Shown: positions 1,941 through 57,317 of the stretch, piece after piece | Position numbering within the stretch: position 1 is the first letter of the stretch | Layout: the number at the start of each line of letters is the position of its first letter | NCBI RefSeq assembly: GCF_051105105.1 | Contig: NZ_CP185339.1 | Reading direction: 5' to 3' (one strand) | DNA: 64,000 nt | DNA from: Nannocystis pusilla | Lineage (GTDB): Bacteria; Myxococcota_A; Polyangia; Nannocystales; Nannocystaceae | The notes under the pieces: model-generated | What the model was told of the DNA's origin: nothing | What the model saw: only the letters and a program-made list of their open reading frames with translations | Databases searched by the model: none | Position numbers and translations under genes: made by a program

Positions 1941-2250
1941 GGCTGTCGCCCTGGACAGGTGCTTCGCGGAAGGTGAGTGGCTGTCGCTTCGGACAGGTGG
2001 TCCGCGGAAGGTAAAAGGGCTGTCGCTTCGGACAGGCGGTCCACGGCGGTGAAGGGCTGTCGCTTCGGACAGTGCGCGCGGCCGTGAGGAGCTGCCTCTT
2101 CGGACAGGCGCGAGCTCGGTCGCGGGGCGGCTGTCGCTTCGGACAGGCGGTCCGGGCGGTGAACGGCTGTCGCTTCGGACAGGCGGTCCACGGATTTTGG
2201 CTGTCGTTTCGGACAGGCGCCCGGTGCTGCGACAGGCTGTCTCTTCGGAC
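1941..2250. repeat. Tandem array of 9 hairpin units (GCTGTCGCTTCGGACAGG, ~37 bp period) between convergent genes
   Basis: Units start near 1942, 1980, 2018, 2055, 2091, 2129, 2166, 2200 and 2236. Each has a 6-bp stem CTGTCG/CGGACAG around a CTTCG (UUCG-like) loop. Spacers are semi-conserved (GGTCCRCGG..GGTGAA). Track ORFs across it (1484..2275, 1615..2280, repeating ACPKRQP) are translation artefacts of the repeat. Confidence 0.8.
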
Positions 2251-2349
2251 AGGCGGAGCCATGCCGCCGGGACACTTCATCGGCGCGCGGTCGCGACGAA
2301 GCCGCCCGGAGTCGCGGGACGCCGGGCGGACGGGGCTCGGGCGCGCTTT

Positions 2350-2733
2350 TTAGCGCAGCGAGTTGCGGAGCCGCGGGATGGTGTCCGGGAGGACGACGCT
2401 GACGAGGATGCCGAGCGGCGCCTTGATGCAGTCGACGGCCATGCCCATGCGGTACTTGTCGGTCAGATCGACGACGATGATCATGACGTTGCCCTCCTCG
2501 CCGAGGCGCAGGAGCGTCTGATAGACGAAGTCGGGCACCGGCAGCTGGGACTTCTTGAGCGCCTCCGTGATTCGTTCACAGAGGATGTTGAAGAGGGCGC
2601 ACGCCTTGGGCGAGCTGCGGATGCCGGCGACCGACATACCGGACGTCTTGCTGAAGACGTCGATGGTGGCGAGGCCGCCCATCAGGCCGTCTTCGATCTC
2701 GGTGAGGGTCGAATTCACGTCTTTCAGGTTCAT
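2350..2733 (-). CDS. Small roadblock/LC7-like (MglB-like) domain protein, tentative
   Basis: Track ORF 2350..2970. The plausible start is the internal Met (MNLKDVNSTLTEIEDG...) at 2733, preceded by GAGAGG. 127 aa with an alpha-beta pattern reminiscent of the roadblock fold. Family assignment is by eye only. Confidence 0.4.
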   Translation of the reverse strand: MNLKDVNSTLTEIEDGLMGGLATIDVFSKTSGMSVAGIRSSPKACALFNILCERITEALKKSQLPVPDFVYQTLLRLGEEGNVMIIVVDLTDKYRMGMAVDCIKAPLGILVSVVLPDTIPRLRNSLR

Positions 2734-3094
2734 CTCGGTGTGCCTCTCGGGGCCGCGATCAGCGAGCAGGACCACACTACATGGAGCCGGGGTCCGATCG
2801 GTGGGGAGTCGGCGAGAAAGCGGCGCTGCCGTTCCGCGGGGACGAGCGCGTCGCGGGTTGCACGCGTTCCGCGAAAGCGGCCGCAGGGCCACCTCCGCGG
2901 CGGTTTGGCGTGGTGCGGGGTCGCGCAAACGGCGCCGGGCGGCGAGAAATCCCCCTCGGTCTGGGGGCATCCAGGGGCCTGGGGGGCCGGCGGCCGTAGA
3001 TCACCCCCGCCCCGGTCCGGGCGGCTCGGCGGTCAGATGTCCTGCACGTCAGGCGGGGCGGAGGGATGCGGCGCGCTCGCAAGGGAGGGCCGGC

Positions 3095-3270
3095 GGCTGT
3101 CCTTGAGGGCAGGTCAGGAGCGCTCGGCGACGCGCGGCGGTCGATCGAAGGCTGTCCTGGGGGACAGGTGATGCGCGGCGGCGGCGGTCGCGAGAGTCGG
3201 CCCGACGTCGCGACTGCGGCGAGGCCGGGTGAGCCGACCTCGCCGCGCGGGCTGTCCTTGCGGACAGGTT
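3095..3270. repeat. Three hairpin-family copies directly downstream of the DUF1552 gene stop
   Basis: gctgtccttgagggcagg (3098), ggctgtcctgggggacagg (3150) and gctgtccttgcggacagg (3251). The last lies 14 nt 3' of the stop at 3281-3283 on the minus-strand gene. Terminator-like. Confidence 0.6.
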
Positions 3271-3280
3271 TAGATGTCTC

Positions 3281-4663
3281 TCAGGCCAGGAGGGCGGCGC
3301 ACGGGGTGTTGGAGTAGCCGTCGCCGTCGGCGTTGGTGGCGCCGACCTCGGTGGCCTCCGGCACGACCGACTGCAGGCAGGCGAGCAGGATGTCGGAGGT
3401 GTTCTCGCTCGACTGCGAGTGGTAGTGCTCGGCGGGGTAGCGCAGGGTGCCGCCGCCGCGGCCGGCGACGATGCACGGCTGGTCGAACACGCTGTGGGTG
3501 TAGCCCGAGGCGGCGTCGCTGCCGAGGATCACGCACGAGTTGTCGAGCAGGTTGCCGTCGCCCTCGACCGTCTCCTTGAGGCGGTTCAGCAGGACCGCGA
3601 AGCACTCGACCGTCTTGATCGTGGCCTGGTCGACCGCCTCGTTGTCGGCGGTGTCGTGGGTCATGTCGTGGTGACCCTTGCTGTGGCCGAGGCTCTTGAA
3701 GATGTGGTAGCCGACCGAGCCCGAGAACTGGATGCTGACGATCCGGGTGAGGTCGCAGCGGAACGCCTCGATGATGATGTCGACCATGGCCGCGTTGACG
3801 AGCTCGATCGGCTCGGCGCCGTCGATGTCCATGTTGGTCTCGATCGGCATGCCCGGCAGGGTGCAGGCCGGCGGCAGGGTCTCGATCTGCTTCTTGATCT
3901 GCTCGACGCTGGCGAGGTGGGCGTCGAGGCGGAGCTTGTCGGCGCTGCCGACCCGCAGCTTGAGCGCCTTCACGTCCTCGCGCACGGCGTCGAGGATGTC
4001 GACGCGCGGGCCCTTGGTCGGGTCGTCGGGCGGGACGAAGCTCTCGAACAGGGCGGCGAACGCCTCCTGCGGGTTGAAGAACGGCGGCAGCGGCTGGTCG
4101 GGGCCCTTGTGCGAGAGGTACTGCAGGGTCGGCCCCTCGCCGGTGACGACTCGCTTCGACACCGCGAGCTGCAGCGACGGCAGGAAGGTCTGGCCGCCGA
4201 CGGCGGCGGCGGCGACCTGGTCGATCGAGGGGCCGCCGAACTTCGACGAGTAGCTGTTCTCGGCGTGCGGCAGCTCGATGAACGGGTAGCCGGAGAAGAA
4301 GCCGGCGCAGCCGTCGTGGTGGCCGCGGCGGTGCTTCGAGGAGGCCTTGATGTCGAAGCCGGTGAGCAGGTTGCAGTAGTCGCGCACGCCCTCGAGCGCG
4401 GCCAGCTGCGGGGTCAGCGGGTAGTTCGGCCCGGTCTCGGCGGGGGCCCAGCGGTTGCCCTTGCCGACGTCGGCGGGGTCGACGAGGGCGACGCCGTTGC
4501 CGAAGTGCCAGGTGATCATGCGCCGCGGCAGGGCGGTGCCGTCGGCGTGGGCGGTGCCGTTCGAGTTGAGCATGGCCTCGAGCAGCGGGAGCGCGAGCGC
4601 GACGGAGGTGCCCCCGGCGACGCCGCGGAGCAGGGTGCGACGGCTGAGTTGATGGCGCTTCAT
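3281..4663 (-). CDS. DUF1552 domain protein with Tat-like signal peptide
   Basis: Internal start MKRHQLSRRTLLRGVAGG (twin-Arg signal) in track ORF 3281..5575. AAGGAG RBS 8 nt upstream. Stop/start coupled to the upstream DUF1592 gene. Body matches the DUF1552 family. Confidence 0.8.
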   Translation of the reverse strand: MKRHQLSRRTLLRGVAGGTSVALALPLLEAMLNSNGTAHADGTALPRRMITWHFGNGVALVDPADVGKGNRWAPAETGPNYPLTPQLAALEGVRDYCNLLTGFDIKASSKHRRGHHDGCAGFFSGYPFIELPHAENSYSSKFGGPSIDQVAAAAVGGQTFLPSLQLAVSKRVVTGEGPTLQYLSHKGPDQPLPPFFNPQEAFAALFESFVPPDDPTKGPRVDILDAVREDVKALKLRVGSADKLRLDAHLASVEQIKKQIETLPPACTLPGMPIETNMDIDGAEPIELVNAAMVDIIIEAFRCDLTRIVSIQFSGSVGYHIFKSLGHSKGHHDMTHDTADNEAVDQATIKTVECFAVLLNRLKETVEGDGNLLDNSCVILGSDAASGYTHSVFDQPCIVAGRGGGTLRYPAEHYHSQSSENTSDILLACLQSVVPEATEVGATNADGDGYSNTPCAALLA

Positions 4664-7211: not shown

Positions 7212-9278
7212 GTGCGCAGATCCAGCCTCGTATCCCTCGTCGCCGTCGGCCTCGTCGCTTGCCAGGATCCGGCCGCCAGCAGCGCGACCGACAACGCCTC
7301 GAGCTCCGAGATGTCCGAGACGACAGGTCCGATGGAACCTGTCCCAACGACCTCGTCATCGGGCAGCTCCGGATCTACGGGCGCGCAGGACGGCTGCCCC
7401 GAGGGCTGCGCGATGGACGAAGCGTGTGTCGGGGGCAGCTGCGAGGCCGTCGGTCGCGCGGACATCGAGGCCGGCTGCCACCCGCTCGGCGACCCCGCAG
7501 GCCGCGGCCAGTGCGTGTACCCGTGGCCGTCGAACTTCTACACGACGCCGTCAGGCGACAGCCCGACCGGGCTGGCAGTGGCGTTGCCGGCGGCCCTGCT
7601 GCCGAAGAACACGCAGCAGGCGGAGTTCCCCGCAGACGAGTTCGTCAACGGAAAGCCAGGGTTCACTCCGAACGCGCAGCTCCGGTTCGCGTCGGCGCGG
7701 CCCATCGACGGGGCTTCGCTGCCGCCGCTGACCGACATCGGAAGTTCGCTGGCCGACGACGCGCCGATCGTGCTGCTCGAGGTCGGCTCGGGGGAACGCT
7801 GGCCGTACTTCGCGGAGGTCGATGCGACGGCAGTGGCAGGCGAACCCCAGACGATCTTCGTGCGGCCGATGCGGCAGCCGCGTGCAGGCGAGCGCTACGT
7901 AGTCGCCGTTCGTGGGCTGCGCGATAAAAACGGCGAGGAGATCCCGGCCTCGCCGCTGTTCCGCGCGCTGCGCGACGCGCTGACGACCGACGTGCCGCAG
8001 CTCGAGGCCGAGCGCGAACGCTACGACGAGATCTTCGCGGCGCTGGCCGCCGCAGGGATCGATCGCGGGTCGCTGCAGCTGGCGTGGGACTTCACGACGA
8101 ACACGCAGGCGGACCTGCAGCGCGACTTCACGGCGATCATGCCGCAGGTCGTGGCGAGCGCGGAGGCCGGAGACCTCGGCTACTCGATCGCGGAGGTGAG
8201 CGAATTTCCGGGTACGGAGGTGCCGCTGGTGGTGCGCGGGACGTTCACGGTGCCGAGCTGCCTGGGGGGCGACAGCGGGCCCGGCACGGTGTTCGCCCGC
8301 GATCCGGAGGGGCTGCCGGACTGCTCGAACACGGCGACCGCGAACTTCTGGATCGCGGTGCCGCAGGCGATCTACGAGGCGAAGACGCCGGCGCCGGTGG
8401 CGGTGTACGGGCACGGGCTGCTCGGCTCGGGCTCGGAGGCGGAGTCGGTGGCGAAGAAGAACGGGTCGCTCATCATGGCGGGGACCGACTTCTGGGGGAT
8501 GTCGGAGGACGACATCGCGGCGGTGCTCGGGATGCTCGGCGGCAACTTCGTCGGCGGCCGGACGCTGGGCGAACGACTGGTGCAGTCGACGGTGAACTTC
8601 ACGACGCTGGCGTACCTGGCCCAGGGCGAGCTGGCGCAGGAGCCGGCGCTCCAAGGGCTGATCGATCCGTCGACGGTGTACTACGTCGGCGGATCGCAGG
8701 GCGGGATCATGGGGGCGACGGTGACTGCGATGGCGCCGAACCTGCGACGCGGGGTGCTGGTGGTCGGCGCGTCGAACTACTCGCTGATGGTGTGGCGCTC
8801 GACGGCGTTCGAGCAGGTGAACTCGGTGTGGGCGGCGACGCAGCCGAGCACGCAGAACCGCGAGTTCCTGTTCGCGCTGTACCAGGCAGTGTTCGACGTG
8901 GCAGACCCGGTGACGTACCGCTCGGTGATCGAGGAGGCAGGCGATGCGCTGCTGCTCATCGAGTCGATCGGGGACGCACAGGTGGCAAACATCGCTTCGG
9001 AGGCGATGGCCCGCTCGTACGGGATGCGGATGGCAGGACCTTCGGTGTACCCGGTGTGGGGGATCGAGGATGCTCCGCCGGGGTTCACGGGGTCGGCGCT
9101 GCTGCAGGTCGATACGAAGAAGGGGCCGCTGCCTCCGGTCGAGAACCTGCCGGCTGGCGGGGACAACGGGGCGCACGGGGCGGCTGTCGACGATCCGGCG
9201 GTGCAGGGGATCCTCGGGGCGTTTCTGCTCGAGGGGGTGGTCTCGAACTCTTGCGATGGGGTTTGCGATCCCGGGTGA
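7212..9278 (+). CDS. Lipoprotein, possibly alpha/beta-hydrolase-like (GGSQGG nucleophile-elbow-like motif)
   Basis: 688 aa. Signal plus lipobox LVAC. Ser/Thr-rich linker and Cys-rich segment. YYVGGSQGGIMG resembles GxSxG. Confidence 0.6.
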   Translation: MRRSSLVSLVAVGLVACQDPAASSATDNASSSEMSETTGPMEPVPTTSSSGSSGSTGAQDGCPEGCAMDEACVGGSCEAVGRADIEAGCHPLGDPAGRGQCVYPWPSNFYTTPSGDSPTGLAVALPAALLPKNTQQAEFPADEFVNGKPGFTPNAQLRFASARPIDGASLPPLTDIGSSLADDAPIVLLEVGSGERWPYFAEVDATAVAGEPQTIFVRPMRQPRAGERYVVAVRGLRDKNGEEIPASPLFRALRDALTTDVPQLEAERERYDEIFAALAAAGIDRGSLQLAWDFTTNTQADLQRDFTAIMPQVVASAEAGDLGYSIAEVSEFPGTEVPLVVRGTFTVPSCLGGDSGPGTVFARDPEGLPDCSNTATANFWIAVPQAIYEAKTPAPVAVYGHGLLGSGSEAESVAKKNGSLIMAGTDFWGMSEDDIAAVLGMLGGNFVGGRTLGERLVQSTVNFTTLAYLAQGELAQEPALQGLIDPSTVYYVGGSQGGIMGATVTAMAPNLRRGVLVVGASNYSLMVWRSTAFEQVNSVWAATQPSTQNREFLFALYQAVFDVADPVTYRSVIEEAGDALLLIESIGDAQVANIASEAMARSYGMRMAGPSVYPVWGIEDAPPGFTGSALLQVDTKKGPLPPVENLPAGGDNGAHGAAVDDPAVQGILGAFLLEGVVSNSCDGVCDPG

Positions 9279-9281
9279 CGG

Positions 9282-9337
9282 CGGCGGTTCGGGTGTGGCG
9301 GTTCGGGTGTGGCGGTTCGGGTGTGGCGGTTCGGGGG
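9282..9337. repeat. Tandem 14-mer (GGCGGTTCGGGTGT) x4 immediately after the stop of the 7212..9278 gene
   Basis: Direct reading: ggcggttcgggtgtggcggttcgggtgtggcggttcgggtgtggcggttcgggggg. Confidence 0.8.
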
Positions 9338-9370
9338 GTCGGTTCGCGAATTGCCGACTGCGCCTCGCGG

Positions 9371-9600: not shown

Positions 9601-10004
9601 CCTTAACGGCGTGGCATCTCCGCGCGGGGAGGGCTGGCGATCGTCGACAGCGAGGTCGCCGACAGGGAGGCCGCCGTCGCCCGTCCCTGTCCGGCCTGCG
9701 CGGCCGCATGACGCGAGACCGCGAGGGGCGCGAGGCGTCGAGCATGTGTGGCCCCGTCGGCCTCCGCCTGTTCACGGGCGGAGCTGCGCGCGTCGATGAA
9801 CGGTGAGCGAGACGTTTACGAGGCTGCGACCCGCTGCGGGCGCTCCTCGTCGAGTCGGACGATGGCCGGCGGTTTGATGCAATGAGGGGCCGCATGTCGC
9901 CGATTCATCGCCGCGCGACACGGCGCTTCGAGCGGCGGGGTAGGCCATGCCTCCAGCGCCGCTCGCTCGCGGAGGGATACGCGCGGAGGCGTTGAGCCTG
10001 GCGA

Positions 10005-10090
10005 TGAAGACATGTCTCTTGGGGAATGTCGGATGAGCCATGTCGCGCAGGACATGCTCGGGAGGGCATGTCCGTCAGGGCATGGCGTGG
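10005..10090. repeat. Array of 3-4 CATGTC...GACATG hairpin-family elements overlapping the 3' end of the vWA gene
   Basis: gacatgtctcttggggaatgtc, catgtcgcgcaggacatg and gcatgtccgtcagggcatg. The minus-strand gene's stop (tca, 10075-10077) lies inside the last element. Confidence 0.7.
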
Positions 10091-11662
10091 AGGGTCGGCT
10101 GCAGCATGCCGGCGAGGCAGCCGAGGGCGGCGGTGTAGTCGCTGTCGCAGACGGACTCGATGCAGCAGCGCATGGCGCGTTCGTTGACGGCGGTGTCGGG
10201 GTCGTCGGGGATGTCGAGCGACTGGCAGACTTCCTGGATCCGCCCGGGGGGGACGGCCTGGCCGGCAGGGCCGACGCAGCCGGGGCCGATGCCGAACTCG
10301 AACTGCTTGTCGGCGGGGGTGTCGCTGTCGCCGGGCAAGATGTCGTCGGGCTGCCAGTCGCGGTAGACGAGGGCGTCGACGCCGCCGACGAGCGGCTCGA
10401 ACGGCGGGGCCTGGTTGTGCTCGGTGACCTGCGGGACGCCGCCGAGGACGAGCATGACGACGTCCTTGCCGTGGGCCTGGCGCAGGTCGGCGAGGGCCTC
10501 GGTGTAGCGGGCGACGGGCTGGAGGACGTGCTTGTCCTCGGACATGCACCACTCGTACTCGCCGTCGTCGTCGTCGTCGGCGCAGGTCATGCCGGCGTTC
10601 CAGCACACGGCGCTGGTCGGCTCGGTCCGCTGGCCGCTGCTGGGGTGGGACGGCCAGTACTTGCTGAACTCGGGGTCGTCGTGCAGCTTGGGGTCGAAGT
10701 AGGCGAAGTTGAGGGTGGAGCAGTCGGTCTCGTCGGTGACGATGACGACCGCCAGCGGGGCGCCGGGGCGCAAGAAGGGCCGCTCGCCGATGTTCCACCG
10801 CGCCCCCAGGTCGAGCGCGCGCAGCATGGCCTCGAGCGGCGACTCCATGCCGCAGCCGTCGATGCCCTGCGGGCCGATGCAGGCGAGGGCGTCAGCCGCG
10901 GGGTCGCCCATGCCGTCAGGGTCGATGACGTTGTGGCTGGTGGGGCTGAAGCGGATGAAGGGATCGGTGGGGACCGAGGGGGCAGCCTCGGCGCAGCGCG
11001 AGGTGCAGATCTCGGACATCTCCGGCGGATCGGCGCCAAGGCCGGTAAACCGCGCGAGCCTGTCGGTGCACGGGGTGTCGATCGGCTCGCCGTCGGCGGC
11101 GTCATAGTCGGGCTTCTCGAACGGGGTGCACAGCGGGTGCGGCACGTCGGTGGTGGTGACCATGATGTGCACGTCGGCGCCGACGAGCTGACCGTTGGCG
11201 TCGCTGAGGCCGCGCAGCAGCGAGACGAAGGCAGGGAAGCTGTCGGCGAGCTGGCTCTGCTCCTCGCCCATGGTGCCGGAGTTGTCGATGACGAACAGGA
11301 CGTTCGAGCTGCTCGCAGGCGCCGCCGTCGATGCAGCCGGTCTCCGGCGGCGGGTCCTCACCGGTGGTGACGGGCTCGCCGGTGGTGCCGTCAGGCGGGT
11401 CGCCGGTGGTGCCCGGCGACCCGGTGGTGGTCGGCAGCGGGCCGACTGTGGTGTCGTCGACGTGCTGCGAGGTGACGACGAGGGTGTCGATGCTGATGGT
11501 CTCGGCGCCGTCGGTGTCGCCCGGGAGCTCGCCCAGCGGGCTGGGATCGAGGATGCAGCCGAGATGTACGAAAGGACAGGTGAGAATCACGGCGAGGCAC
11601 GCCCTCGCCGCGGAGGCGATGGGGCTGCGGTGCGTTCGGGAAGTGGGCACGGGTCGTCTCAC
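10075..11662 (-). CDS. vWA-domain lipoprotein; signal, Thr/Pro linker and vWA lie in two frames, so there is an apparent 1-nt frameshift near 11320
   Basis: Frame A (track 11102..11662) has signal/lipobox AVILTCPFVHLGC plus a T/P-rich linker ending ...ETGCIDGGA. Frame B (track 10075..11361) continues AASTAAPASSSNVLFVIDNSGTM (MIDAS DxSxT) through a full vWA domain. Frames differ by 1 nt around ggcggcgcctgcgagc. Confidence 0.6.
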
Positions 11663-14029: not shown

Positions 14030-14318
14030 GGACGCAGCAGCCTCGGATGGTAGACGCGAGCCCCGCCGGGACGCCAGGGGGCTGCGGCGGGGCGATGGTG
14101 AGTTTGTTCGGCGTTCGGTGGCGTAGCGGTGAGCTGTCCTTCGGGACATGTGAGCAGCGAGCGCGACGCGGCGCCGGGGCGGAACCGCCCCGGCGCGCCG
14201 GGGCGCTCACGGCCGTGTCCGCGGGGTGTCAGCGCGGGCCCGGGGGCGGCGTTGTGGGGCTGCACGCCGAGGCACGAGGCTGTCAAGCTGGCCCGTGTCC
14301 CGGCCCAAGGAGACGCGC

Positions 14319-16490: not shown

Positions 16491-16597
16491 GGACGACGAC
16501 GAGGAAGGCCGCGTGCCGACGCTCCGTGAGCGGCGGCCGCGGCCTTCTGTTTCGGGGCGCTCACCGGCGTGAGCGGGCTCGGAGCCTGGCCCTGGGA

Positions 16598-16665
16598 GCA
16601 TGTCCTGAAGAGCCTGTCCTCCGGAGCATGCTCCGGAGGACCTGCCCTTCGGGTCACATGCAGGG
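16598..16665. repeat. Palindrome cluster between convergent gene ends, including a perfect 24-nt palindrome TCCTCCGGAGCATGCTCCGGAGGA
   Basis: gcatgtcctgaagagcctgtcctccggagcatgctccggaggacctgcccttcgggtcacatgcaggg. Lies between the vWA stop (16490) and the Cys-rich lipoprotein stop (16654). Confidence 0.7.
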
Positions 16666-17409
16666 CGGCGAGGCCTCGATCGTGTGGCCGCAGTGGACCT
16701 GGGCCTCGGCCGGGCCGGTGGCGGCGATCGTGAGGTGGTAGAGGCGGCAGGCGAGGGTGTTGCCGGCGGCGTCCTCGGTGTTGTACGGCTCGGTGTCCAT
16801 GAAGTTGGCGCAGGTGGCCATGCAGTCGCCGGGGCTCGGGTGCTCGGTCGGGCAGATCGAGGTGGCGATCGCGCAGAAGCCCTCGCAGCTCTGGCCGCAC
16901 GCGCCGGCGCCGCTGGGGCCGGCGTGGATGCAGTGGACGCCCGGATCGATCGAGGCCATGCCGGCGTGGTAGGCCCGGCAGGACAGCGAGTTGCCGGAGG
17001 TCTCGCCCGGCGAGCCCGGCGGGAGGCCGCCGCAGGCGCCGAGGCAGCTCTCGTTGCTCGGGTACTGGGCGTTGGTGCCGGTGCAGCTGCCCATCATCGC
17101 CGCGCAGTACATCTGGCAGCCGACGTTGGTGTCGCCGCCGGTGCTCGAGGTGCCGGTGGTCGGGTCGCTGGTGCTGGTGAGCGGATCGACGTTGCTGGTG
17201 GTGGTCGAGGTGGTGGGCTCGCCGGAGGTCCAGTCGGTCGTGGAGGTGCTGGTCGTCGTGGTGGTCGTGACGTCGCCGCTGACCTGGGTCGCGGTCGTGG
17301 TCATGACGGTGGTGCTCGCGGCCTGGCCGGTGTCGTCACCGCGCGAGTCGTCGAAGCAGGCGGGGAGCAGGAGGGTAACGAGGAGGGGAAGGTAGGCGCG
17401 AGAGGTCAT
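16654..17409 (-). CDS. Cys-rich lipoprotein with Thr-rich linker (paralog A)
   Basis: Start MTSRAYLPLLVTLLLPAC (lipobox) in track ORF 16654..17442. Poly-Thr linker. About 150-aa domain with ~16 Cys (CxxMMGSC...YHAG...HC). Ends SPPCM. Confidence 0.7.
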   Translation of the reverse strand: MTSRAYLPLLVTLLLPACFDDSRGDDTGQAASTTVMTTTATQVSGDVTTTTTTSTSTTDWTSGEPTTSTTTSNVDPLTSTSDPTTGTSSTGGDTNVGCQMYCAAMMGSCTGTNAQYPSNESCLGACGGLPPGSPGETSGNSLSCRAYHAGMASIDPGVHCIHAGPSGAGACGQSCEGFCAIATSICPTEHPSPGDCMATCANFMDTEPYNTEDAAGNTLACRLYHLTIAATGPAEAQVHCGHTIEASPPCM

Positions 17410-17460
17410 GCGTGGGCCTTGCGTGGCGGCGTGAACCGGCATGGTCGAAGGGACATGTCT

Positions 17461-18159
17461 TTACATGCAGGGTGGGGAGTTCTGGAGGGTGTGCGGGCAG
17501 TGCACGGCGGCGTCGGTCTCGCCGGTGGCCGCGACGGTGAGGTGGTAGAGGCGGCAGGCGAGGGTGTCGCCGGCGACGTTGCCGACGTTGAACTCCTCGT
17601 CGTCGGTGAAGCCGGCGCAGGTGGCGAGGCAGGCCTCGAGGCTCGGGTGCTCGCCGGGGCAGACGGACACGGCGAGGGCGCAGAAGCCGTCGCAGTTGTC
17701 GCCGCAGGCGCCGCCGCCGCTGGGGCCGGCGTGGACGCAGTGGGTGGGCGCGTCGGTGGCGGCGGCGTCGGTGTGGTAGCGGCGGCAGGCGTAGCTGTTG
17801 CCCGAGACGTCACCGCGCGCGCCGGCGGGGAAGCTGGCGCAGGCGCGCTTGCAGCTGTCGGCGCTCGGGTACTGGGCCTGCGGGTCGAGACAGTTCGTCA
17901 TGACGTTGGCGCAGTAGTCGGCGCACAGCGCCTCGTCGACGCCGGTGGTCGCGGTCTCGGTGTCGCTGGAGGTGGTCGACGTGGTGGTGAGCTCGGCGGT
18001 GGTGGGCCCGGCGGTGGTGGGCCCGGGGGTCGTGGCGGCGGCGGAGGTCGTGGTCGTGCTGCTGCCGTCGCTGCCGCTGCCGGTGCTCTCGTCCCCGGGC
18101 TCCGACTTGCAGGCGGCGAGCACGAGCGCGACGACGAGCGCGGTGGCCGGCTTCCCCAT
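17461..18159 (-). CDS. Cys-rich lipoprotein with Thr-rich linker (paralog B)
   Basis: 232 aa. Lipobox LVLAAC. Same Cys spacing and same C-terminus (SPPCM) as paralog A. A GACATGTC palindrome lies between the two genes (17440-17462). Confidence 0.7.
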   Translation of the reverse strand: MGKPATALVVALVLAACKSEPGDESTGSGSDGSSTTTTSAAATTPGPTTAGPTTAELTTTSTTSSDTETATTGVDEALCADYCANVMTNCLDPQAQYPSADSCKRACASFPAGARGDVSGNSYACRRYHTDAAATDAPTHCVHAGPSGGGACGDNCDGFCALAVSVCPGEHPSLEACLATCAGFTDDEEFNVGNVAGDTLACRLYHLTVAATGETDAAVHCPHTLQNSPPCM

Positions 18160-18310
18160 GGCGATCCGCAGTCTGCGGCCCGCGCGATCGCGTTGTCAAC
18201 CGCGGTCCGTGGGGCCGGAGAGCCGCAGCGGCGGCGCGTGATGCCTGTCTGAAAGGACAGGTGAGCAGAGGAGGCGGGCGCGGGGCCGCGGCGCGGCGCG
18301 TGGTCGCGCG

Positions 18311-18628: not shown

Positions 18629-18677
18629 GGGCGGCGATGGAGCGGTCTTCAGGACATGTCTCGAAGTGCAGGCGGAA

Positions 18678-19514
18678 TCAGCGGTCGCGGGTGAAGTGGA
18701 CGCGGATGGCAGGCGAGCGGGCGCGGACCGGGCGGCCGTCGCGGTCGAGGGCGGGGGTGAAGCGGGTGCGGCGGGCGCAGGCGAGGGCGGCGGCGCCGAA
18801 GCCGTCGCCGGGATCGGCGACGAGCTCGGCGGACTCGACGACGCCGCGGGCGTCGACGACGACGCGGATCGTGGTGACCTGTTCGTCGAGCGCGAGGCCG
18901 TCGGCCTCGAGCGGCCAGGGGCAGTTCCACTCGTCGCTGGCGAGGGCGACCGGGCGCGAGCGATCGACGGCGCCGGGTGGGGCAGGCGGAGGGCTGGCGG
19001 GCGGCGCGGGCGACGGCGACGGCTCCGAGCTGGCGTTCGGGACAGGTTTGGTGCCGGTGCCGGTCGAGCTGGTGGCGCCGCCGACGTAGGCGCTGGCGCT
19101 GCCGACGACGACGACGTTGCCGGTGAGGTCGAGGGCGCCCGGCGGGGCGGCGACGACCTTGCCGGCGCCGGCGGGGGCGGGCCGGGCCGGTCGCGCGGGC
19201 GCGGGCGCCGGCGGGGTCGCGGCGACGGCGGGGGCCGGCTCGTTGGCGGGCGGGGGCGGCTCTGACGGGGGCGGCTCGGGCGGCGGAGGCGGGGGCTCGG
19301 TGCGCTCGACGTCGGCGAGCTGCAGGCGGGTCAGCTCGTCGTGGACGCGCGCGGCCATGGTGGCGCTCCAGGTCTCCAGCGTGGGCTGGGCCCGCAAGAT
19401 CATCACCGCGACGCCGAGGTGCAGGAGGACGGCGACGATGATCGCGTGGTGCCGCCGCGAGGCCGGCGGCGCGGCGGCGGCGAACACCTGGGCGGCGATG
19501 CCCGGCCGGGTCAC
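18678..19514 (-). CDS. tonB: Energy transducer TonB (TM anchor, Pro-rich spacer, TonB_C domain)
   Basis: TM HHAIIVAVLLHLGVAVMIL. PPPPPPEPPPSEPPPP spacer. C-terminal VTTIRVVVDARGVVESAELVADPGDGFGAAALACARRTRFTPALDRDGRPVRARSPAIRVHF. Confidence 0.8.
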   Translation of the reverse strand: MTRPGIAAQVFAAAAPPASRRHHAIIVAVLLHLGVAVMILRAQPTLETWSATMAARVHDELTRLQLADVERTEPPPPPPEPPPSEPPPPANEPAPAVAATPPAPAPARPARPAPAGAGKVVAAPPGALDLTGNVVVVGSASAYVGGATSSTGTGTKPVPNASSEPSPSPAPPASPPPAPPGAVDRSRPVALASDEWNCPWPLEADGLALDEQVTTIRVVVDARGVVESAELVADPGDGFGAAALACARRTRFTPALDRDGRPVRARSPAIRVHFTRDR

Positions 19515-19524: not shown

Positions 19525-19700
19525 CCGCGGCTGTTTTAAAAGACAGGTGAGGCGCGGCGGCGCTCGCCCGGGCTCGCGGCAGGGCTCGTGGAGGCGCCTG
19601 CACGAGCGCGGGGGAGGATGGCCCGAGGGACAGGTGGTGAGCCGCGCCGGGCGCGGCGGAGGATGTCCTGAACGACATGTGATTCGACGACCGGGTCACG
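19525..19700. repeat. Cluster of hairpin-family elements between tonB and exbD
   Basis: ctgttttaaaagacagg, gagggacaggtg and gatgtcctgaacgacatg. Confidence 0.5.
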
Positions 19701-20136
19701 GCGTCGCCTCCTGGCCGGCGGGGCCTGGCGCGGGGGACAGGGTGGCGAAGGCGACGCGGTAGACGCCGCCGCGCTGGAGGGCGTCGATGGTGGCGATCAC
19801 GCGGCGGTGGGGGACCTCGCCGTCGGCGTGGATGACGGCGCGGACCTGCGGGCTGCGGGCGCGCACCGCGGCGGCGCGGGCGACGAGCTCGTCGTCGCCG
19901 GCGATCGGCTCGCCGTCGACGAGGGTGGCGCCGCGCTCGGGGACGATCACCGACAGGACGACCTGGACCTCGCCGGCGGTGCTGGCCTCCGGCAGGTCCA
20001 TCTCGACCGCGGGGGTGACGATGATCTTGGCGGTGACGATGAAGATGATGAGCAGCACCAGGACGATGTCGACCATCGGCGTGACGTTGATGCCGACGAT
20101 CATGCCGCCCTGCTCGCCGCTGCTGTGGCCGGCCAT
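19696..20136 (-). CDS. exbD: ExbD/TolR family biopolymer transport protein
   Basis: MAGHSSGEQGGMIVGINVTPMVDIVLVLLIIFIVTA... is the canonical ExbD N-terminus. ATGA overlap with the exbB stop. Confidence 0.85.
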   Translation of the reverse strand: MAGHSSGEQGGMIVGINVTPMVDIVLVLLIIFIVTAKIIVTPAVEMDLPEASTAGEVQVVLSVIVPERGATLVDGEPIAGDDELVARAAAVRARSPQVRAVIHADGEVPHRRVIATIDALQRGGVYRVAFATLSPAPGPAGQEATP

Positions 20137-21564: not shown

Positions 21565-21625
21565 AAAGACCGGTGACGATGGACAGGTGCGAGAGGACAG
21601 GTCCGGAGGGACAGGCGGCTAGAAG
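21555..21625. repeat. Direct repeats GGACAGG x3 plus GGGACATG between the TBDR stop and the lipoprotein start
   Basis: gggacatgcgcaaaaagaccggtgacgatggacaggtgcgagaggacaggtccggagggacaggcgg. Confidence 0.6.
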
Positions 21626-26076: not shown

Positions 26077-27783
<1,707 letters not shown>

Positions 27784-34634: not shown

Positions 34635-34693
34635 GTCGGCGTCGATGCGACGGCCAGGGCGGGCCGTCGCATCGACGCCTTCTTTCGAGCTTT
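34635..34693 (+). terminator. Perfect 18-bp-stem hairpin GGCGTCGATGCGACGGCC-agggcg-GGCCGTCGCATCGACGCC followed by TTCTTTCGAGCTTTC
   Basis: Seen directly at 34635-34676, with a T-rich tail. Lies downstream of a short ORF fragment (MGQVLHGCATTTEAIRRAIQHRQASLRTPAKRDGIAATAR, 34457-34579). Confidence 0.6.
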
Positions 34694-51512: not shown

Positions 51513-53055
51513 ACGCGCTGGGATGGTTCGGCGAGCGAGGGGGATGTCCGCGGGGACATGTCACTCGAGGCGGCCGTGCCAGATTCGAGCGATCGCCGAC
51601 CTGGTACGCGCCGCACACCGCGAACTCGAGCGCGCCGGCCGGGGCGGGCTGGTAAGTCGGTGATTCGACGTAGATCGCCGACGGGGCGGCGAAGCCGGGG
51701 TCGGGGCCGGCGACGTTGACGATCTCGGCGGCCGCCCAGTCGACCGGCCCGCAGCGCCGGTTCGGGGACCGCAGCAGCTCGACGCCCTGGCCGCCGGCGC
51801 TGCCGCGGACGAGCCACAGGCGGTCGTCCGCGGGTCGGATGAAGCGGGCGCGATAGGTGTCGGGGAACACGTGCAGCGGGGCGGTGTGGCCGGCCCAGCT
51901 CGCGCCGGCGGGGCGGTGATAGTACGCGACGACGCCGTCGAAGTAGGCGAGCACGTGGGTGTCGCCGGCGTCGTCGTGGAACAGGTCGGCGCCGCTGCGG
52001 ACCTGCGCGGCCGGGTCGGGTGGCTCGAGGGACAGGAACGTAGGGACCTGTCCTAAAGTGACGTCAGCGACCACCGCGGCGTACGTGCCGTCGGGGTACT
52101 GACCGGTGAAGGTCTGGCCGACCAGCGCGAGCTGGCCGCCGGGCGTGGCCATGGCGTGGACGTAGCCGAGGTCGTTGGCGCCGCCGAGGTCGACCTCGAC
52201 CGGCCCGTTCCAGCCGCCGCCGAAGTTGTAGGTGTAGACCCAGCGACCGGGGCCGCCGCCCTCGCCGACGACGGTAAACCACACGACGCGCGCGCCGGGG
52301 CCGAGCACCGCGGCGCCGACGTAGTTCGAGGCGGGCGGGGTGGTGTAGACCTGGCCGCTGATGAGCACTGCGTTGCAGGCGTGCACCGACGGATCGGCGG
52401 TGTCGAGGTAGCACTCCTCGAGGAAGTGCTGCTGGATGTTGACGCCGTAGGTGAGGATCGTCGAGCCGACCAGCACGCTGGCGGCGTTCTGCTGGATTCC
52501 GTCGGTGTGCGGCTGTTCGGCGACGAGGCTCCACGCGGGCTCGCCGGCGCCGCGGCGGAGGTAGCGGATCGTGCGGTTGTGATCCACGTCCTCGCCCGCG
52601 TCGACGTGAAACCACAGGCTGTCGTCGGGCGCGCGCATGAGGCCGCGCAGGTGCGGGCCCCAGCCGCCGTGCATCTCGACGTAGGCGCGGTTGTCGTCGG
52701 TGAGGAGCGTCAGGGCGACCTCCGGCGGCGGGGCGACCTCGGTAGTACCGGTGCCGGTGATCGTGGGGTCGGGCGCGTCGCCGGTGGTCGAGGTGGTGAC
52801 GGGCTCGCCGGAGGGGGTCGTCGTCGTTGCGACCTCGGTGGTGGCGAGCGTGGTGGCTGGATCGACGCCGGTGCTCGCGGAGGTGAGCGGGGGGGCGTCG
52901 GTGGTGCCGGCGCTGTCCGCCGGGCAGGCGGCGAGCAGCAGCGCGGCTGCGAATCGCAGGCGCGGGCGGAGCGAGCGAGGGACACGCACATGGCGGACGC
53001 CAGCCTCGGCGGTGGGCATGAGGGCAGTGTGACGCGAGGCCGCGCGCGGGCTCAA
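51496..53055 (-). CDS. Lipoprotein, hypothetical, with Thr-rich linker
   Basis: AALLLAACP lipobox after an N-terminal extension; the start may be the Met 12 codons in. The 3' end overlaps a perfect hairpin ATGTCCgcggGGACAT at ~51545-51570. Contains an in-frame GGACAGG..CCTGTCC element at ~52030-52065. Confidence 0.5.
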   Translation of the reverse strand: MSPRAASRHTALMPTAEAGVRHVRVPRSLRPRLRFAAALLLAACPADSAGTTDAPPLTSASTGVDPATTLATTEVATTTTPSGEPVTTSTTGDAPDPTITGTGTTEVAPPPEVALTLLTDDNRAYVEMHGGWGPHLRGLMRAPDDSLWFHVDAGEDVDHNRTIRYLRRGAGEPAWSLVAEQPHTDGIQQNAASVLVGSTILTYGVNIQQHFLEECYLDTADPSVHACNAVLISGQVYTTPPASNYVGAAVLGPGARVVWFTVVGEGGGPGRWVYTYNFGGGWNGPVEVDLGGANDLGYVHAMATPGGQLALVGQTFTGQYPDGTYAAVVADVTLGQVPTFLSLEPPDPAAQVRSGADLFHDDAGDTHVLAYFDGVVAYYHRPAGASWAGHTAPLHVFPDTYRARFIRPADDRLWLVRGSAGGQGVELLRSPNRRCGPVDWAAAEIVNVAGPDPGFAAPSAIYVESPTYQPAPAGALEFAVCGAYQVGDRSNLARPPRVTCPRGHPPRSPNHPSAFTAGG

Positions 53056-53874: not shown

Positions 53875-54486
53875 GATAATCCTACGCGGTGCTGCGATTC
53901 GCGGGGCCCGAAGCCGGCCGCGTCGCCGCGCCATGCCGGAGTAGCTGCGAGAGGCGTGGCGGCGGATCACGGCGGCGTCGCGGGGAGGCTGTTGCGTCCG
54001 CACGCGGCGGCGCGGACGGCGGTGAAACCAATCGGGCTGGCGACCCGGTGATGCGAAACGCCACATGTTGCACCGACGCTCGGCCGGCGACACCACCCGG
54101 GCACACCGCGGGGAGCGGCGCGTTCGCGAGCGGGGGCGAGGACCGGTCGTCCTCGCTCGCCGAGGATGGCTCTCCGATCTTGCGATGGCGCGGATGCCCG
54201 AAGGACCGCGCCACGCGCTGGCCGCTCCGACGCTTGGTGGACGTTCGTCGGTTGGATGGTCAATTAAACATGTTCGATTGGTAATGTCTTCATGTTTATG
54301 TCTCCAAGAACATGCCCGATTGGACCTGTCGAATAGGGCACATCGCTCACGGGTCGAGCCCATTAAAGGAGGTCGAACAATGGGCTGCGCTAGTTGCGCA
54401 TCTCGTGGCTGACATGTACGAAAGTGCAGGTCGGCGCGTTTCCGCGCCTCCGCTTTGGAAGGCCGCCAGGGGCCGAAAATTCTCGC

Positions 54487-54516
54487 TTGACGGCTTACTA
54501 CACCTGTAGTACTACG
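54487..54516 (+). promoter_or_regulatory. Promoter plus BlaI-type operator: TTGACG (-35) then a 7-2-7 palindrome TACTACA-CC-TGTAGTA just upstream of the repressor start
   Basis: ttgacggcttactacacctgtagtactacg read directly. The TACA/TGTA half-sites match the BlaI/MecI/CopY operator style. Embedded in a locally AT-richer intergenic stretch (54240-54520). Confidence 0.6.
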
Positions 54517-54526: not shown

Positions 54527-54928
54527 ATGGGTGAGGTACTCCAGCTCAGCGATCTGCAGCTCGGCCTGCTGCGGATCTTGTGGGACCGCGGGGAGGCGAC
54601 GGCGCTCGAGGTGCATGCGGCTCTGGTCGAGCAAGAGCGGGGGCTCGCGCCGACGACGGTGTCGACGATGCTGTCGCGGCTGGAGAAGAAGGGGACCATC
54701 GCGCACCGCACGGAGGGCCGGCAGTTCATCTACCGGGCGCTCGTCTGTGAGGTGGACGTGAGGCGCTCGATGCTGGGCAGGCTCACCGACTACTTCTTCG
54801 GCGGGGACGTGGCGGCGCTGGTCAGCCACCTCGTCGAGGGCCGCGACGCCGAACCGGACGACGTTGCGCGCCTGCAACAACTATTGGCCGAACGATCCGG
54901 CGGAGCTGAGGAACACGACGATGTTTGA
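54527..54928 (+). CDS. BlaI/MecI/CopY-family transcriptional repressor
   Basis: MGEVLQLSDLQLGLLRILWDRGEATALEVHAALVEQERGLAPTTVSTMLSRLEKKGTIAHRTEGRQFIYRALV. The track ORF begins 3 codons earlier at a TTG. Confidence 0.8.
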   Translation: MGEVLQLSDLQLGLLRILWDRGEATALEVHAALVEQERGLAPTTVSTMLSRLEKKGTIAHRTEGRQFIYRALVCEVDVRRSMLGRLTDYFFGGDVAALVSHLVEGRDAEPDDVARLQQLLAERSGGAEEHDDV

Positions 54929-57143
54929 TCTTGCGATCGATCCTGCCGGCCTCGCCGGTCTCGCGGCGCCTGCCGCTCACACGACGGTGAGCTGGCTCGG
55001 CACCTACTTCGTCCACTCGACGGTGCTCATCGGCGGCGTGTGGATGTTCAGCCGCTTCCTGCCGCTCGACGCGCTGACCCGCAGCTTGCTGTGGAAGACA
55101 TCGCTGGTCGGCGGGCTGTTCACGGCGACGCTGCAGACGGGGCTCGGGGTCGAGCCGATGTTCGGCCGCGTCACCGTGGCGGCGAGCAGCCCGGACCTGG
55201 GCGCGCCCACGACGGCCCCGGCGCCGCCGCCGGTGGTGGAGGAGGAGCCGGCGACGCTGCTGGTGCCGTTCACCCGCGCGTGCGTCGGCTGCGAGTCGCA
55301 CGTGGTAGTCGTCAGCGACGACGACATCACGGCGGTGTTCGCCTCGCCGCCGCTGTTCGTCGACGCGCCGGGCTGGGCGGTCGCGCCGACGCCGGCGCTG
55401 ATGCCCGCGCCGACGACCGAGCCGCCGCTGGCGGCCGCGCCGATGCAGATCGCTACGGCGGGTCCGGTCGGGGGCGTGAGCGCGGCGGTGTGGGCATTCG
55501 CGGGGCTGTTCGTGTTCGGCGCCGCGGCCTCGCTCGGCCGGCTCGGGATGACGTTCTCTCGCCTGCGCCGCGGGCTCCGCGGTCGTCGCCTGCTCGGCTC
55601 GGGCTCGCTGCGCGAGCGCCTGACGCGGCTGCTGGCCCACGCGCGGCTGCCCGGCCACAGCGTCACGCTGAGCGAGTCGGCGGACATCAGCTCGCCCATC
55701 GCCCTCACCGGCCGCGAGATCGTGGTGCCGGAGCAGGTGCGCGAGCTGGCGCCGCGGCAGCAGGAGGCGATGCTGGCCCACGAGCTGGCCCACGTGCTGC
55801 GCCGCGATCCGGCGTGGCAGGTGATGGCGGCGTTCGTCGAGTCGCTGCTGTTCTTCCAGCCGCTCAATCGAGTGGCCCGTCGCGGCATGCAGGAGGCGGC
55901 GGAGGAGCTGTGCGACGACTGGGCGGTCCGCCACACCGGTTCGGAGGTGCACCTGGCGCGCTGCCTGGCCGAGGTCGCGGCGTGGCCTGGCCATCGGGAC
56001 ATGTCGGCGTTCGCCAGCCCGATGGCGGGGCACGCCTCGCAGCTGGTGCGCCGGGTGCAGCGCCTGCTCGACGTGCACCTGCGCGACCGCGGGCTGTGGG
56101 CCCGGCGCTGGCGGGTGGCCCTCGGCGCGGCGCTGCTGGCGATGGTGACGTTCGGCGCGCCCGGGCTGTCGATCGCGGCCGAGGCGCAAGATGCCCCCGA
56201 GTGGCCGACGACGCCCGACAACGGGCCGGCGCCGCAGCCGTCGCTGTCGTTCGTCCACGTGCCCGAGACGCCGATCGTGGCCGTGCGGACGCCGCATAGC
56301 CACGCGGTCCACGGGCACGACATCATCGTCGTCGAGCATGCGCAGGAGCTGACCCGCAAGCAGAAGCGACTGCTGCGCCGCGCCGAGCGGCACGCCCGCA
56401 AGGCGGCCAAGCTGCGCGCCAAGAGCGGGCTGTACGCGGTGCCGGCGACGCACGCGGTGTACGTGCCGGTGTCGCACGTGACGCCGCCGACGCCGCCGAC
56501 GCCGCCGACGCCGCCGACGCCGCCGACGCCGCCGACGCCGCCGACGCCGCCGAGCTTCAAGGTCGTCGTCGCGCACGACCACGACGACTGCGACGACGAC
56601 GATCACGACGTGATGGTCCACCGGATGGCCGTCCCGCACGTGGCCGTCCACCCGCCCGTGTTCCACGTGCCGGACATCGACGAGGAGGCGATCGCGGCCC
56701 AGGCCGAGGCGATCGCGGCCCAGGTCGAAGCCCAGCTCCAGGGCCTCGACGAGCAGATCGAGCGCGAGCTGGAGAGCATCGACTTCGACAAGATCGCCGC
56801 CGACGTGGAGCGCGGGGTCAAGGCGTCGCTCCGCGGCGTCGAGCGGGCCCGCGAGGACGCCGAACGGGCCCGCGAAAACGCCGAGCGGGCGCGCGAGCGG
56901 GCGGACCGGGCGCGCGAGCAGGGCGACCGGGCGCGTGAACAGGGCGACCGGGCGCGCGAGCGGGCCGAGCGGGCGCGCGAGCGGGCCGAGCGGCAGGCCG
57001 AGAAGGGCCGCCGCAAGGCCGACGCTTCGCGGGCCGCGGCCGCGGTCCGCAGCGCGGTCGACGAGGCGCTGCGCGACGGAGTGATCGACGCCGAGGAGCA
57101 GCGCAAGATCAGCGAGGCGGCCCGCCAGGTCCGCATGAAGTGA
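54921..57143 (+). CDS. BlaR1/M56-family membrane metallopeptidase signal transducer with unusual C-terminus ((PPT)8 tract plus charged coiled-coil RAREQGD repeats)
   Basis: Start MFDLAIDPAG overlaps the repressor stop. Four TM helices. HELAHVLRRD zinc motif. A 9-bp tandem repeat (ccgccgacg x8, ~56473-56550) encodes PPTPPT... C-terminal ERARENAERARERADRAREQGDRAREQGDRARERAERARERAERQ. Confidence 0.8.
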   Translation: MFDLAIDPAGLAGLAAPAAHTTVSWLGTYFVHSTVLIGGVWMFSRFLPLDALTRSLLWKTSLVGGLFTATLQTGLGVEPMFGRVTVAASSPDLGAPTTAPAPPPVVEEEPATLLVPFTRACVGCESHVVVVSDDDITAVFASPPLFVDAPGWAVAPTPALMPAPTTEPPLAAAPMQIATAGPVGGVSAAVWAFAGLFVFGAAASLGRLGMTFSRLRRGLRGRRLLGSGSLRERLTRLLAHARLPGHSVTLSESADISSPIALTGREIVVPEQVRELAPRQQEAMLAHELAHVLRRDPAWQVMAAFVESLLFFQPLNRVARRGMQEAAEELCDDWAVRHTGSEVHLARCLAEVAAWPGHRDMSAFASPMAGHASQLVRRVQRLLDVHLRDRGLWARRWRVALGAALLAMVTFGAPGLSIAAEAQDAPEWPTTPDNGPAPQPSLSFVHVPETPIVAVRTPHSHAVHGHDIIVVEHAQELTRKQKRLLRRAERHARKAAKLRAKSGLYAVPATHAVYVPVSHVTPPTPPTPPTPPTPPTPPTPPTPPSFKVVVAHDHDDCDDDDHDVMVHRMAVPHVAVHPPVFHVPDIDEEAIAAQAEAIAAQVEAQLQGLDEQIERELESIDFDKIAADVERGVKASLRGVERAREDAERARENAERARERADRAREQGDRAREQGDRARERAERARERAERQAEKGRRKADASRAAAAVRSAVDEALRDGVIDAEEQRKISEAARQVRMK

Positions 57144-57168
57144 GGCGGTAGGTCCTCAGGTGTCCAGA

Positions 57169-57200
57169 GGGACATGCTCGCTCGAGCATGTCCCTTTTTT
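57169..57200 (+). terminator. Intrinsic terminator: perfect 12-bp stem GGGACATGCTCG-ct-CGAGCATGTCCC followed by TTTTTT
   Basis: Seen directly, 26 nt after the BlaR1-like stop. Followed at 57203-57250 by three tandem GGGCATGGCC-cgaa units, each forming a small GCCCgaaGGGC hairpin. Confidence 0.75.
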
Positions 57201-57317
57201 CATGGCCCGAAGGGCATGGCCCGAAGGGCATGGCCTTTCGGGCATGCCCGCAAAGATGACCTCGGCGCGGCCGCGGCGGCCTCGCGGGTCGGCGCGGCGA
57301 CCGAGGGCGGAGCGCGG

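Follow-up and report, generated by a model that had tools for sequence, protein, structure and literature searches.

A window of 64,000 nt from Nannocystis pusilla (contig NZ_CP185339.1 of assembly GCF_051105105.1; "the window" here always means this whole stretch) raises the question of what a multitude of short GC-rich hairpins is doing at the ends of its genes. An earlier note, made from the sequence alone, described these hairpins as one high-copy family with arms TGTCC and GGACA, which it took to resemble the repetitive extragenic palindromes (REPs) and bacterial interspersed mosaic elements (BIMEs) and to double as terminators, with protein-binding half-sites as the alternative. Our analysis suggests, with a probability of roughly one half, that they are a Nannocystis-specific, very high-copy family of REP-like elements without the classical REP tag, whose members form strand-symmetric hairpins at the ends of transcription units. 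The G+C content of the window is 71.6%, its gene content is myxobacterial (Ser/Thr kinases, an FHA-sigma54 activator, DUF1552/DUF1592 proteins and a TonB-ExbBD cluster), and its PfkB-family kinase (32397-33338) shares 99% identity with the N. pusilla protein and 96-97% with the corresponding proteins of other Nannocystis species.

The hairpins greatly exceed what the composition of the window would produce. The pattern CMTGTCCNNNNGGACAKG (CMTGTCC-N4-GGACAKG), with up to three mismatches allowed, has 95 matches in the 64-kb window, compared to 10.57 ± 3.15 in shuffled sequence (the maximum in any shuffle being 22); with up to two mismatches there are 56 matches against 1.5 expected. Exact matches to TGTCC-N3-6-GGACA number 14 against 0.13 expected, and the spacer is 4 nt long in all 14 of them. 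At the scale of the window the count is thus well above the shuffled expectation, as anticipated by the earlier note, and every array and singleton that it listed was found again. Tandem Repeats Finder reports the array with a 36-39-bp period at 1941-2256, and 14-bp arrays at 10039-10094, 16595-16638, 21581-21615 and 29540-29610. In the loci that we regard as unbiased, i.e. the window and the PfkB loci of three species, there are about 8 matches per 10 kb; the elements are short imperfect palindromes and nearly all extragenic, and extrapolation from these loci would give roughly 10^4 matches in a whole genome.

The family is built from an inverted repeat, C[A/C]TGTCC-N4-GGACA[T/G]G, whose spacer is strictly 4 nt long: in 148 kb of loci that were not selected for repeats, N4 gives 121 matches versus 0-5 each for N3, N5, N6, N7 and N8. 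Two types can be distinguished. Type I (G-GCTGTCC-N4-GGACAGG-TG) has no CATG and occurs as singletons or in arrays with a period of 36-39 bp, e.g. at 1942-2253. Type II has CATG at the junction of neighbouring units and consists of a 10-bp palindrome, GGRCATGYCC, plus 4 nt, tiled head to tail, so that an array can be written as (GGACATGTCC-N4)n. Neighbour spacing in 0.49 Mb of Nannocystis DNA is 14 bp in 282 cases, 13 bp in none and 15 bp in one, with 28 bp as the next commonest value. The sequence logo shows the symmetric GGRCATGYCC, spacer positions of near-zero information, and only G, G and R in the flanks. Hence the arrays of the earlier note are present, with the correction that they follow a strict 14-bp register (10-bp palindrome plus 4 nt), which it did not state, while the direct GGACAGG triplets that it mentioned (21570-21615) turn out to be a decayed 14-bp array and not a direct-repeat motif of their own.

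Since a type II unit is close to its own reverse complement, adjacent units can pair on either strand, giving a 4-nt loop closed by a stem of as many as 10 bp, and the arrays are predicted to fold stably on both strands (z -1.3 to -7.2). We analyzed pairing in 266 non-coding pairs of CATG spaced 14 bp apart, using three flanking positions on each side. Complementarity across the spacer was counted 430 times, compared to 379 ± 11 expected from base frequencies (z 4.5; 0 of 5000 permutations reach this value). In the same 266 pairs, symmetry within a single 10-mer is not enriched (358 versus 380), nor does comparing a unit with its next neighbour but one reveal any excess. Within the hairpin, positions 2 and 17 show covariation between A-T and C-G (odds ratio 6.6, p = 3e-5), to which subfamily structure contributes, and one orthologous pair exhibits a compensatory change from T-A to C-G. 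The excess of complementarity across the spacer, with none within the 10-mer, argues that the feature being maintained is pairing, i.e. a stem-loop. The symmetric 10-mer was also considered as a constrained binding site for a dimer and rejected, because symmetry within the unit is not above expectation.

These results bear directly on another possibility, in which the hairpin would be a by-product: the units may be sites on double-stranded DNA at which a protein acting as a dimer or oligomer labels transcription-unit ends, e.g. gyrase, a nucleoid-associated protein, or a factor that terminates transcription or acts as a roadblock. Much of the anatomy would suit such sites: the arm sequence is specific, the sequence of the 4-bp spacer is free while its length is invariant, which argues for recognition of a fixed geometry, the strands are fully symmetric, and the strict 14-bp phasing would set successive sites at regular angular offsets. 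There is also a precedent in the BIMEs of E. coli, which are reported to bind gyrase and IHF (PMC2817692). Against this reading, complementarity across the spacer goes beyond what the half-site consensuses provide and has no counterpart in the 10-mer, the compensatory double change in one orthologue is that of a paired stem, and no candidate protein was identified. The half-site alternative of the earlier note therefore gains from the invariant spacer and loses on the pairing test, which favours the hairpin, and we find it unlikely that protein sites on double-stranded DNA are the primary function.

The elements are concentrated at gene 3' ends. In a sample that includes loci selected for arrays, the density in matches per kb falls from 15.6 between convergent genes through 6.4 between tandem and 1.3 between divergent genes to 0.65 within coding sequence. 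Of the spacers, 57 of the 63 convergent ones contain an element, compared to 76 of the 146 tandem and 17 of the 68 divergent ones. In the unbiased loci, an element lies within 100 nt of 32 of 56 gene 3' ends (57%), compared to 2 of 36 pure 5' regions (6%; Fisher p = 2e-7). The first element lies at a median of 11-15 nt past the stop codon, which it often overlaps, and the last one at a median of 115 nt from the next start codon. The gene-context counts thus bear out the location that had been proposed, 3' of stop codons and between convergent genes. Arrays stay with the upstream gene when its downstream neighbour changes: a gene for a 294-aa protein and a gamma-glutamyltranspeptidase gene each retain the array at their 3' end with or without an intervening 6-kb RND-efflux cluster. 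This OEP-MFP-RND cluster is present between the two genes in N. pusilla and N. punicea (L001, 1132-7328), and absent from the window (29479-29723) and from N. exedens (loci compared: L001, L002 and L004). As repeat arrays occur at both of its junctions, they may be recombination or insertion break-points.

Comparison of orthologous loci, reached via PfkB homologues, reveals that loops and arms evolve differently. In the PNP-PfkB spacer of five genomes the arms of three hairpins are near-invariant and the loops differ at most positions. Over independent orthologous pairs, differences amount to 24 of 64 loop positions, 28 of 217 arm positions and 1146 of 9463 third codon positions (loops versus third positions, p = 2e-7; loops versus arms, p = 3e-5), so that arms change about 3 times more slowly than loops, with the spacer length constant. 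At the same gene end in different species, arrays vary in both the number and the content of their units. Two N. pusilla strains differ by the gain or loss of one exact 14-nt unit flanked by CATGT, which is a signature of slippage. At 3560-3860 of another N. pusilla locus (L013) about 95 bp that include family units are repeated three times in tandem, with unrelated sequence at this place in N. exedens, which indicates that larger composite repeats can be built from the units.

Analysis of the taxonomic distribution links the family to a single genus. With up to two mismatches, five Nannocystis genomes have 6-10 motif matches per 10 kb, compared to 1.0 in a metagenome-assembled genome (MAG) from the sister Nannocystaceae (PfkB 74% identical) and 0 in Paraliomyxa (2 and 0 matches in 21 kb each). 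The equivalent spacers of sister taxa contain unrelated hairpins or repeats. The PNP-PfkB spacer of a Nannocystaceae MAG (L006) contains, at 9880-9925, a tandem repeat with a unit of about 13-14 bp, different from the one at 9283-9346 of the window described below. A more distant Nannocystis MAG (PfkB 80%) has type I copies, and CATG arrays are almost absent from it. A scan for four CATGs at 14-bp spacing, over one genome for each of 185,579 species, returned at least 120 loci; among the matches listed, 43 of 120 loci belong to 8 Nannocystis assemblies and all 43 carry further family members, while the loci from other taxa have at most 2 family matches each. A scan of IMG/VR with the array pattern gave 79 loci, 0 of which carry the family. 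In this sample of sister loci and at least 120 listed loci, the family and its 14-bp arrays are almost confined to Nannocystis, and we found no description of it in the literature searched.

If position were the only evidence, the elements could be regarded as ordinary Rho-independent terminators, selected only at the RNA level and resembling one another incidentally. They follow stop codons by 4-20 nt, occupy nearly all convergent spacers and have stable predicted RNA folds, so that a stable GC-rich hairpin soon after the stop, as in an intrinsic terminator, is indeed found. In a minority of cases T5-6 follows the unit in the sense direction, e.g. at 57169-57200, where two units, GGGACATGCTCG/CGAGCATGTCCC, and a subsequent T6 constitute a canonical terminator. 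The signs specific to the sense strand are missing, though. The 10 nt downstream contain on average 1.88 T on the sense and 2.02 T on the antisense side, i.e. there is no U-tract bias, and canonical hairpin-plus-T-run sites are not enriched over the shuffled expectation (15 versus 12.7 in 60 kb), which leaves the family as the commonest recognisable 3' structure. The ratio of G.T to A.C stem mismatches is 152:63 in loci of positive GC skew and 46:75 in loci of negative skew, alike for both gene orientations; mismatches thus track the sign of the skew and not gene direction, so that selection at the RNA level is unsupported. Loop tetramers are equally frequent as sequence and complement (GAAG/CTTC, TTCG/CGAA), which gives no evidence for UUCG or GNRA tetraloops; the earlier note had viewed UUCG, GAAG and GCAA loops as hyperstable RNA tetraloops, and the loop preference proves to be strand-symmetric instead. 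Furthermore, terminators of independent origin would not share arm sequence, a 4-nt loop and a 14-bp register, nor would they be confined to one genus while sister taxa have unrelated hairpins at the same places. We consider this explanation rather improbable. Of the suggestion that the repeats double as terminators, the part that stands is the fit of their position, from which a role in termination may still be proposed.

Several other observations concern strand composition and terminators. GC skew is strong and uniform (+0.04 to +0.18) over the whole window whatever the orientation of genes, and its sign flips between ~2.3-3.5 Mb and 6.1-8.6 Mb of N. pusilla contig_2 (loci L001-L127) in a replichore-like fashion; both the kinds of mismatch in the repeats and their unpaired flanks are shaped by it. 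Of all sites in the window that resemble a canonical terminator, the strongest, at 34638-34679, is a perfect 18-bp stem (GGCGTCGATGCGACGGCC...GGCCGTCGCATCGACGCC) with a T-rich tail. It does not belong to the family and lies in a lower-GC stretch at 32-36 kb, where the surrounding 4 kb have 67% GC compared to 72% for the window. Over the whole window, Rfam gave no match at gathering score and a tRNA scan found no tRNA.

Among known repeats, the REPs and BIME arrays of E. coli and Pseudomonas are alike in being short extragenic palindromes of high copy number, located after stops and between convergent genes, often grouped in arrays whose copy number varies among strains, and the Nannocystis elements share their enrichment at 3' ends and in convergent spacers (32 of 56 versus 2 of 36, and 57 of 63, as given above). 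E. coli K-12 contains a few hundred REPs, and the density in Nannocystis (~10^4 per genome when extrapolated; 57% of 3' ends) is well above this. E. coli REPs within 15 nt of a stop codon are reported to stall ribosomes (PMC12306157), and many Nannocystis units similarly lie 15 nt or less from a stop. The Nannocystis unit is shorter, with a hairpin of 18-24 nt versus about 35 nt in a REP. The palindrome of classical REPs carries a conserved tetranucleotide, GTAG or CGTC, at one of its ends (PMC3733652), and the Nannocystis elements lack this tag: GTAG/CTAC occurs within 8 nt of 3 of 327 elements (about 12 expected) and CGTC/GACG of 40 of 327 (about 98 expected). The organisation differs as well. 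Type II units are self-palindromic and form overlapping head-to-tail tilings of 14 bp in which neighbours share the CATG core, and the second type recurs with a 36-39-bp period, in contrast to the inverted doublets, or the alternating Y and Z units with linkers, of REPINs and BIMEs.

The same comparison makes it very unlikely that the units are REPINs copied by a RAYT (REP-associated tyrosine transposase) encoded elsewhere in the genome. In favour of REPINs, the units are distributed like REPs, are numerous, persist vertically and are confined to one lineage, and sequence-specific arms with a fixed geometry would suit an HUH enzyme; but the tag is rarer than expected, the arrays are head-to-tail tilings and not spaced inverted doublets, and the turnover that we see is local slippage by 14 nt. 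In REPIN-RAYT systems a single-copy RAYT gene is flanked by repeats (PMC5581495); a tblastn search with E. coli RayT revealed no RAYT in 0.49 Mb of Nannocystis DNA (best E = 4.7), which is a weak test as this amounts to ~4% of one genome. Thus, the REP/BIME likeness put forward in the earlier note holds for copy number, extragenic location, placement at 3' ends and between convergent genes, arrays and confinement to one lineage, while membership of the classical REP/RAYT system is unsupported, given the missing tag, the head-to-tail tiling and the lack of a RAYT in the 0.49 Mb sampled.

Stem-loop families of the REP-like kind without the tag have been listed for M. tuberculosis, D. radiodurans, Bordetella, Brucella and cyanobacteria (PMC3733652). 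The Nannocystis family is similar to these in that they are lineage-specific, small intergenic palindromic repeats with no terminal tag and an unknown mechanism of mobilisation. To our knowledge, none of them has a self-tiling 10+4-bp architecture or an invariant loop length. TRIT of Mycobacterium tuberculosis, reportedly described by Gardner et al. in the RNIE paper of 2011, is a sequence-conserved terminator-like hairpin; it is alike in being repeated at gene 3' ends of a GC-rich genome with scarce U-tracts, and unlike the Nannocystis family in comprising about a hundred single hairpins, not arrayed, whose unit is not palindromic. Other hyper-abundant short motifs are the inverted pairs of DNA uptake sequences (DUS) in Neisseria, which form terminator-like hairpins, and cyanobacterial HIP1 (GCGATCGC), an iterated palindrome; these are defined by the motif and frequent in coding sequence, whereas the Nannocystis elements are nearly all extragenic and constrained in their pairing across the 4-nt spacer. 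A reading of the latter as uptake sequences, or as a HIP1-like palindrome linked to a methyltransferase specific for CATG or RCATGY, can point to a hyper-abundant, short palindromic core with RCATGY and to inverted pairs at gene ends like those of DUS. It is scarcely credible nevertheless, because their density in coding sequence (0.65 per kb versus 15.6 in convergent spacers) is 10-24 times lower than in 3' spacers while uptake signal sequences and HIP1 are common inside genes, because pairing across the spacer and not the 10-mer is constrained, and because type I copies have no CATG.

Our preferred reading therefore remains an untagged, REP-like family peculiar to Nannocystis and located at the ends of transcription units. 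Transcribed from either direction, its hairpins would act as transcript-end structures that could pause or terminate RNA polymerase or block 3'-exonucleases, and units within about 15 nt of a stop codon could disturb ribosomes at termination in the manner of E. coli REPs. An origin by copying, i.e. slippage within arrays and a step of dispersal, would account for the common sequence and constant geometry, possibly together with recognition by a dedicated protein. A number of points weigh against this reading. The role as terminator or stabiliser is deduced from position, and neither U-tracts, nor mismatch types, nor loop sequences follow the sense strand. The arms evolve at approximately the rate of synonymous sites, so that they can be called constrained only relative to the loops; these are either the sole unconstrained sites or hypermutable. 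The gene calls are our own codon-bias predictions, and the sample used for the context densities comes partly from loci picked for containing arrays. Finally, stability of a hairpin alone needs neither a shared arm sequence nor an invariant 4-nt loop, which leaves room for a recognition protein or for a mechanism that copies exact units.

Such a protein is the centre of a more speculative proposal, to which we give only a small chance. A dedicated Nannocystis protein, e.g. a domesticated HUH nuclease or a binder of hairpins or inverted repeats, might read TGTCC-N4-GGACA on DNA or RNA as part of a punctuation system in which arrays phased at 14 bp would serve as graded stop or insulator signals acting in both directions; maintenance and spread of the units might be due to this protein as well. 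Such a system would account for four features that stability alone leaves unexplained: the invariant spacer, the shared arms, the strand symmetry and the confinement to one genus.

In the first part of the window, two units in 14-bp register (497-532) lie in a convergent spacer, the first of them 7 nt past the stop of the + gene 2-490, and form a hairpin with a 10-bp stem at 507-532. The type I array at 1942-2253 consists of nine copies of GCTGTCG-CTTC-GGACAGG, each with a linker of about 18 nt (period 36-39 bp), in a 515-nt convergent spacer between an HxlR-like gene (1535-1834, +) and the gene 2350-2775 (-). A CRISPR-like or coding origin of this array (1941-2253) was considered and rejected, as it has no coding signal and the would-be "spacers" are semi-conserved linkers. 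Downstream of the stop of the - gene 3281-4663, type I singletons (GCTGTCC-N4-GGACAGG) occur at three places, 3096, 3151 and 3251, along with a weak copy at 3273 (together 3096-3290), and two weak in-register units (7310-7341) are found in the spacer of two + genes. At 9283-9346 there is a non-palindromic 14-bp tandem repeat, GGCGGTTCGGGTGT (4.6 copies, 94% matches), beginning 5 nt past the stop of the + gene 7413-9278; it shares its period and its place at a gene end with the palindromic arrays and differs from them in sequence. A 14-bp array of 5-6 units (9997-10094) runs into the stop of the - gene 10075-11271. Singletons follow at 11563-11580 (GATGTAC-GAAA-GGACAGG) and at 14133-14150 (GCTGTCC-TTCG-GGACATG), the latter in a divergent spacer, a rare location for the family. 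Four units of a 14-bp array (16585-16652), among them the perfect 16-bp palindrome CCGGAGCATGCTCCGG (16621-16636), lie 10 nt from the stop of the - gene 16654-17409. A lone hairpin (17440-17457) is placed 4 nt past the stop of the - gene 17461-18159 in a same-strand spacer of 51 nt, and a further singleton, CCTGTCT-GAAA-GGACAGG, at 18244-18261.

The TonB-ExbBD region is particularly rich in elements: a weak hairpin (18655-18672) 6 nt past the stop of the TonB-like gene (18678-19514, -), two hairpins (19617-19679) downstream of the stop of the ExbD gene (19696-20136, -), and three in-register units (20150-20195) within the last 20 codons of the ExbB gene (20136-20825, -), whose open reading frame (ORF) enters the array. 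The last ~14 codons of ExbB (tail MSDTTGPEGQQEAR) are encoded by these three units, and the ExbB orthologue in locus L005 has a tail that differs beyond the shared LVLAY. To judge from this tail, ORFs seem able to extend into arrays or to be truncated by them. The gene for the TonB-dependent receptor (21619-24246, -) has a decayed 14-bp array (21542-21615) that ends 4 nt from its stop. Inside ORFs, hairpin-like copies occur at 23734-23850, in the linker of a TonB_C-Plug-barrel receptor, and at 26383-26439, in the C-terminal tail of a Ser/Thr kinase. Both translate into P-V-P-[ST]-D-[ST] in Pro/Ala/Ser-rich linkers of two unrelated proteins, whereas other in-ORF matches fall into conserved domains; the PVP[ST]D[ST] peptide recurs several times in the receptor linker of the distant Nannocystis MAG (L005). 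In-ORF matches are conserved like coding sequence, and the copies may reflect either uptake of units, similar to in-frame insertion of the Rickettsia RPE type, or chance resemblance.

Further along, the hairpin CCTGTCC-TTTC-GGACATC (28565-28582) is situated 12 nt upstream of the start of the + gene 28594-29478, a position conserved in N. pusilla and N. exedens. The convergent spacer that follows (elements at 29542-29720) contains two arrays, one (29542-29615) adjoining this + gene and the other (29658-29720) adjoining the stop of the gamma-glutamyltranspeptidase gene (29724-31229, -). Three hairpins (32308-32367) begin 1 nt past the stop of the PNP gene (31426-32307, +). The singleton GATGTCC-GCGG-GGACATG (51543-51560) lies in the overlap of two convergent ORFs, weak AT-richer units in 14-bp register (54269-54328 and 54399-54430, together 54269-54430) in a divergent spacer, and the last array (57159-57246) after the BlaR1-like gene (54987-57143, +). 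Two repeats of other kinds were noted nearby. A perfect inverted repeat, TACTACA-CC-TGTAGTA (54496-54511), is located 16 nt upstream of a Penicillinase_R (BlaI/MecI-type) repressor gene (54527-54928), which is followed by the gene of the BlaR1 peptidase-M56 sensor; it is unrelated to the palindrome family and resembles the TACA/TGTA operator of BlaI/MecI-type repressors. Within the BlaR1-like gene, at 56480-56553, there is a perfect 9-bp tandem repeat, GACGCCGCC (8.2 copies, 100% matches).

On the practical side, the arrays are likely to cause trouble in assembly and PCR, and they could serve as markers for strain typing or as candidate terminator parts for the engineering of myxobacteria. The combination of a fixed geometry, slowly changing arms, loops that change about three times faster, and slippage between strains is relevant to the question of whether REP-like elements are selfish, structural or functional. 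Another question to which the family is relevant is how transcription units end in very GC-rich bacteria, in which terminators composed of a hairpin and a U-tract are scarce: in our sample a single regular repeat family, with arrays of 1 to about 6 units, is present at about half of gene 3' ends and in almost every convergent spacer.

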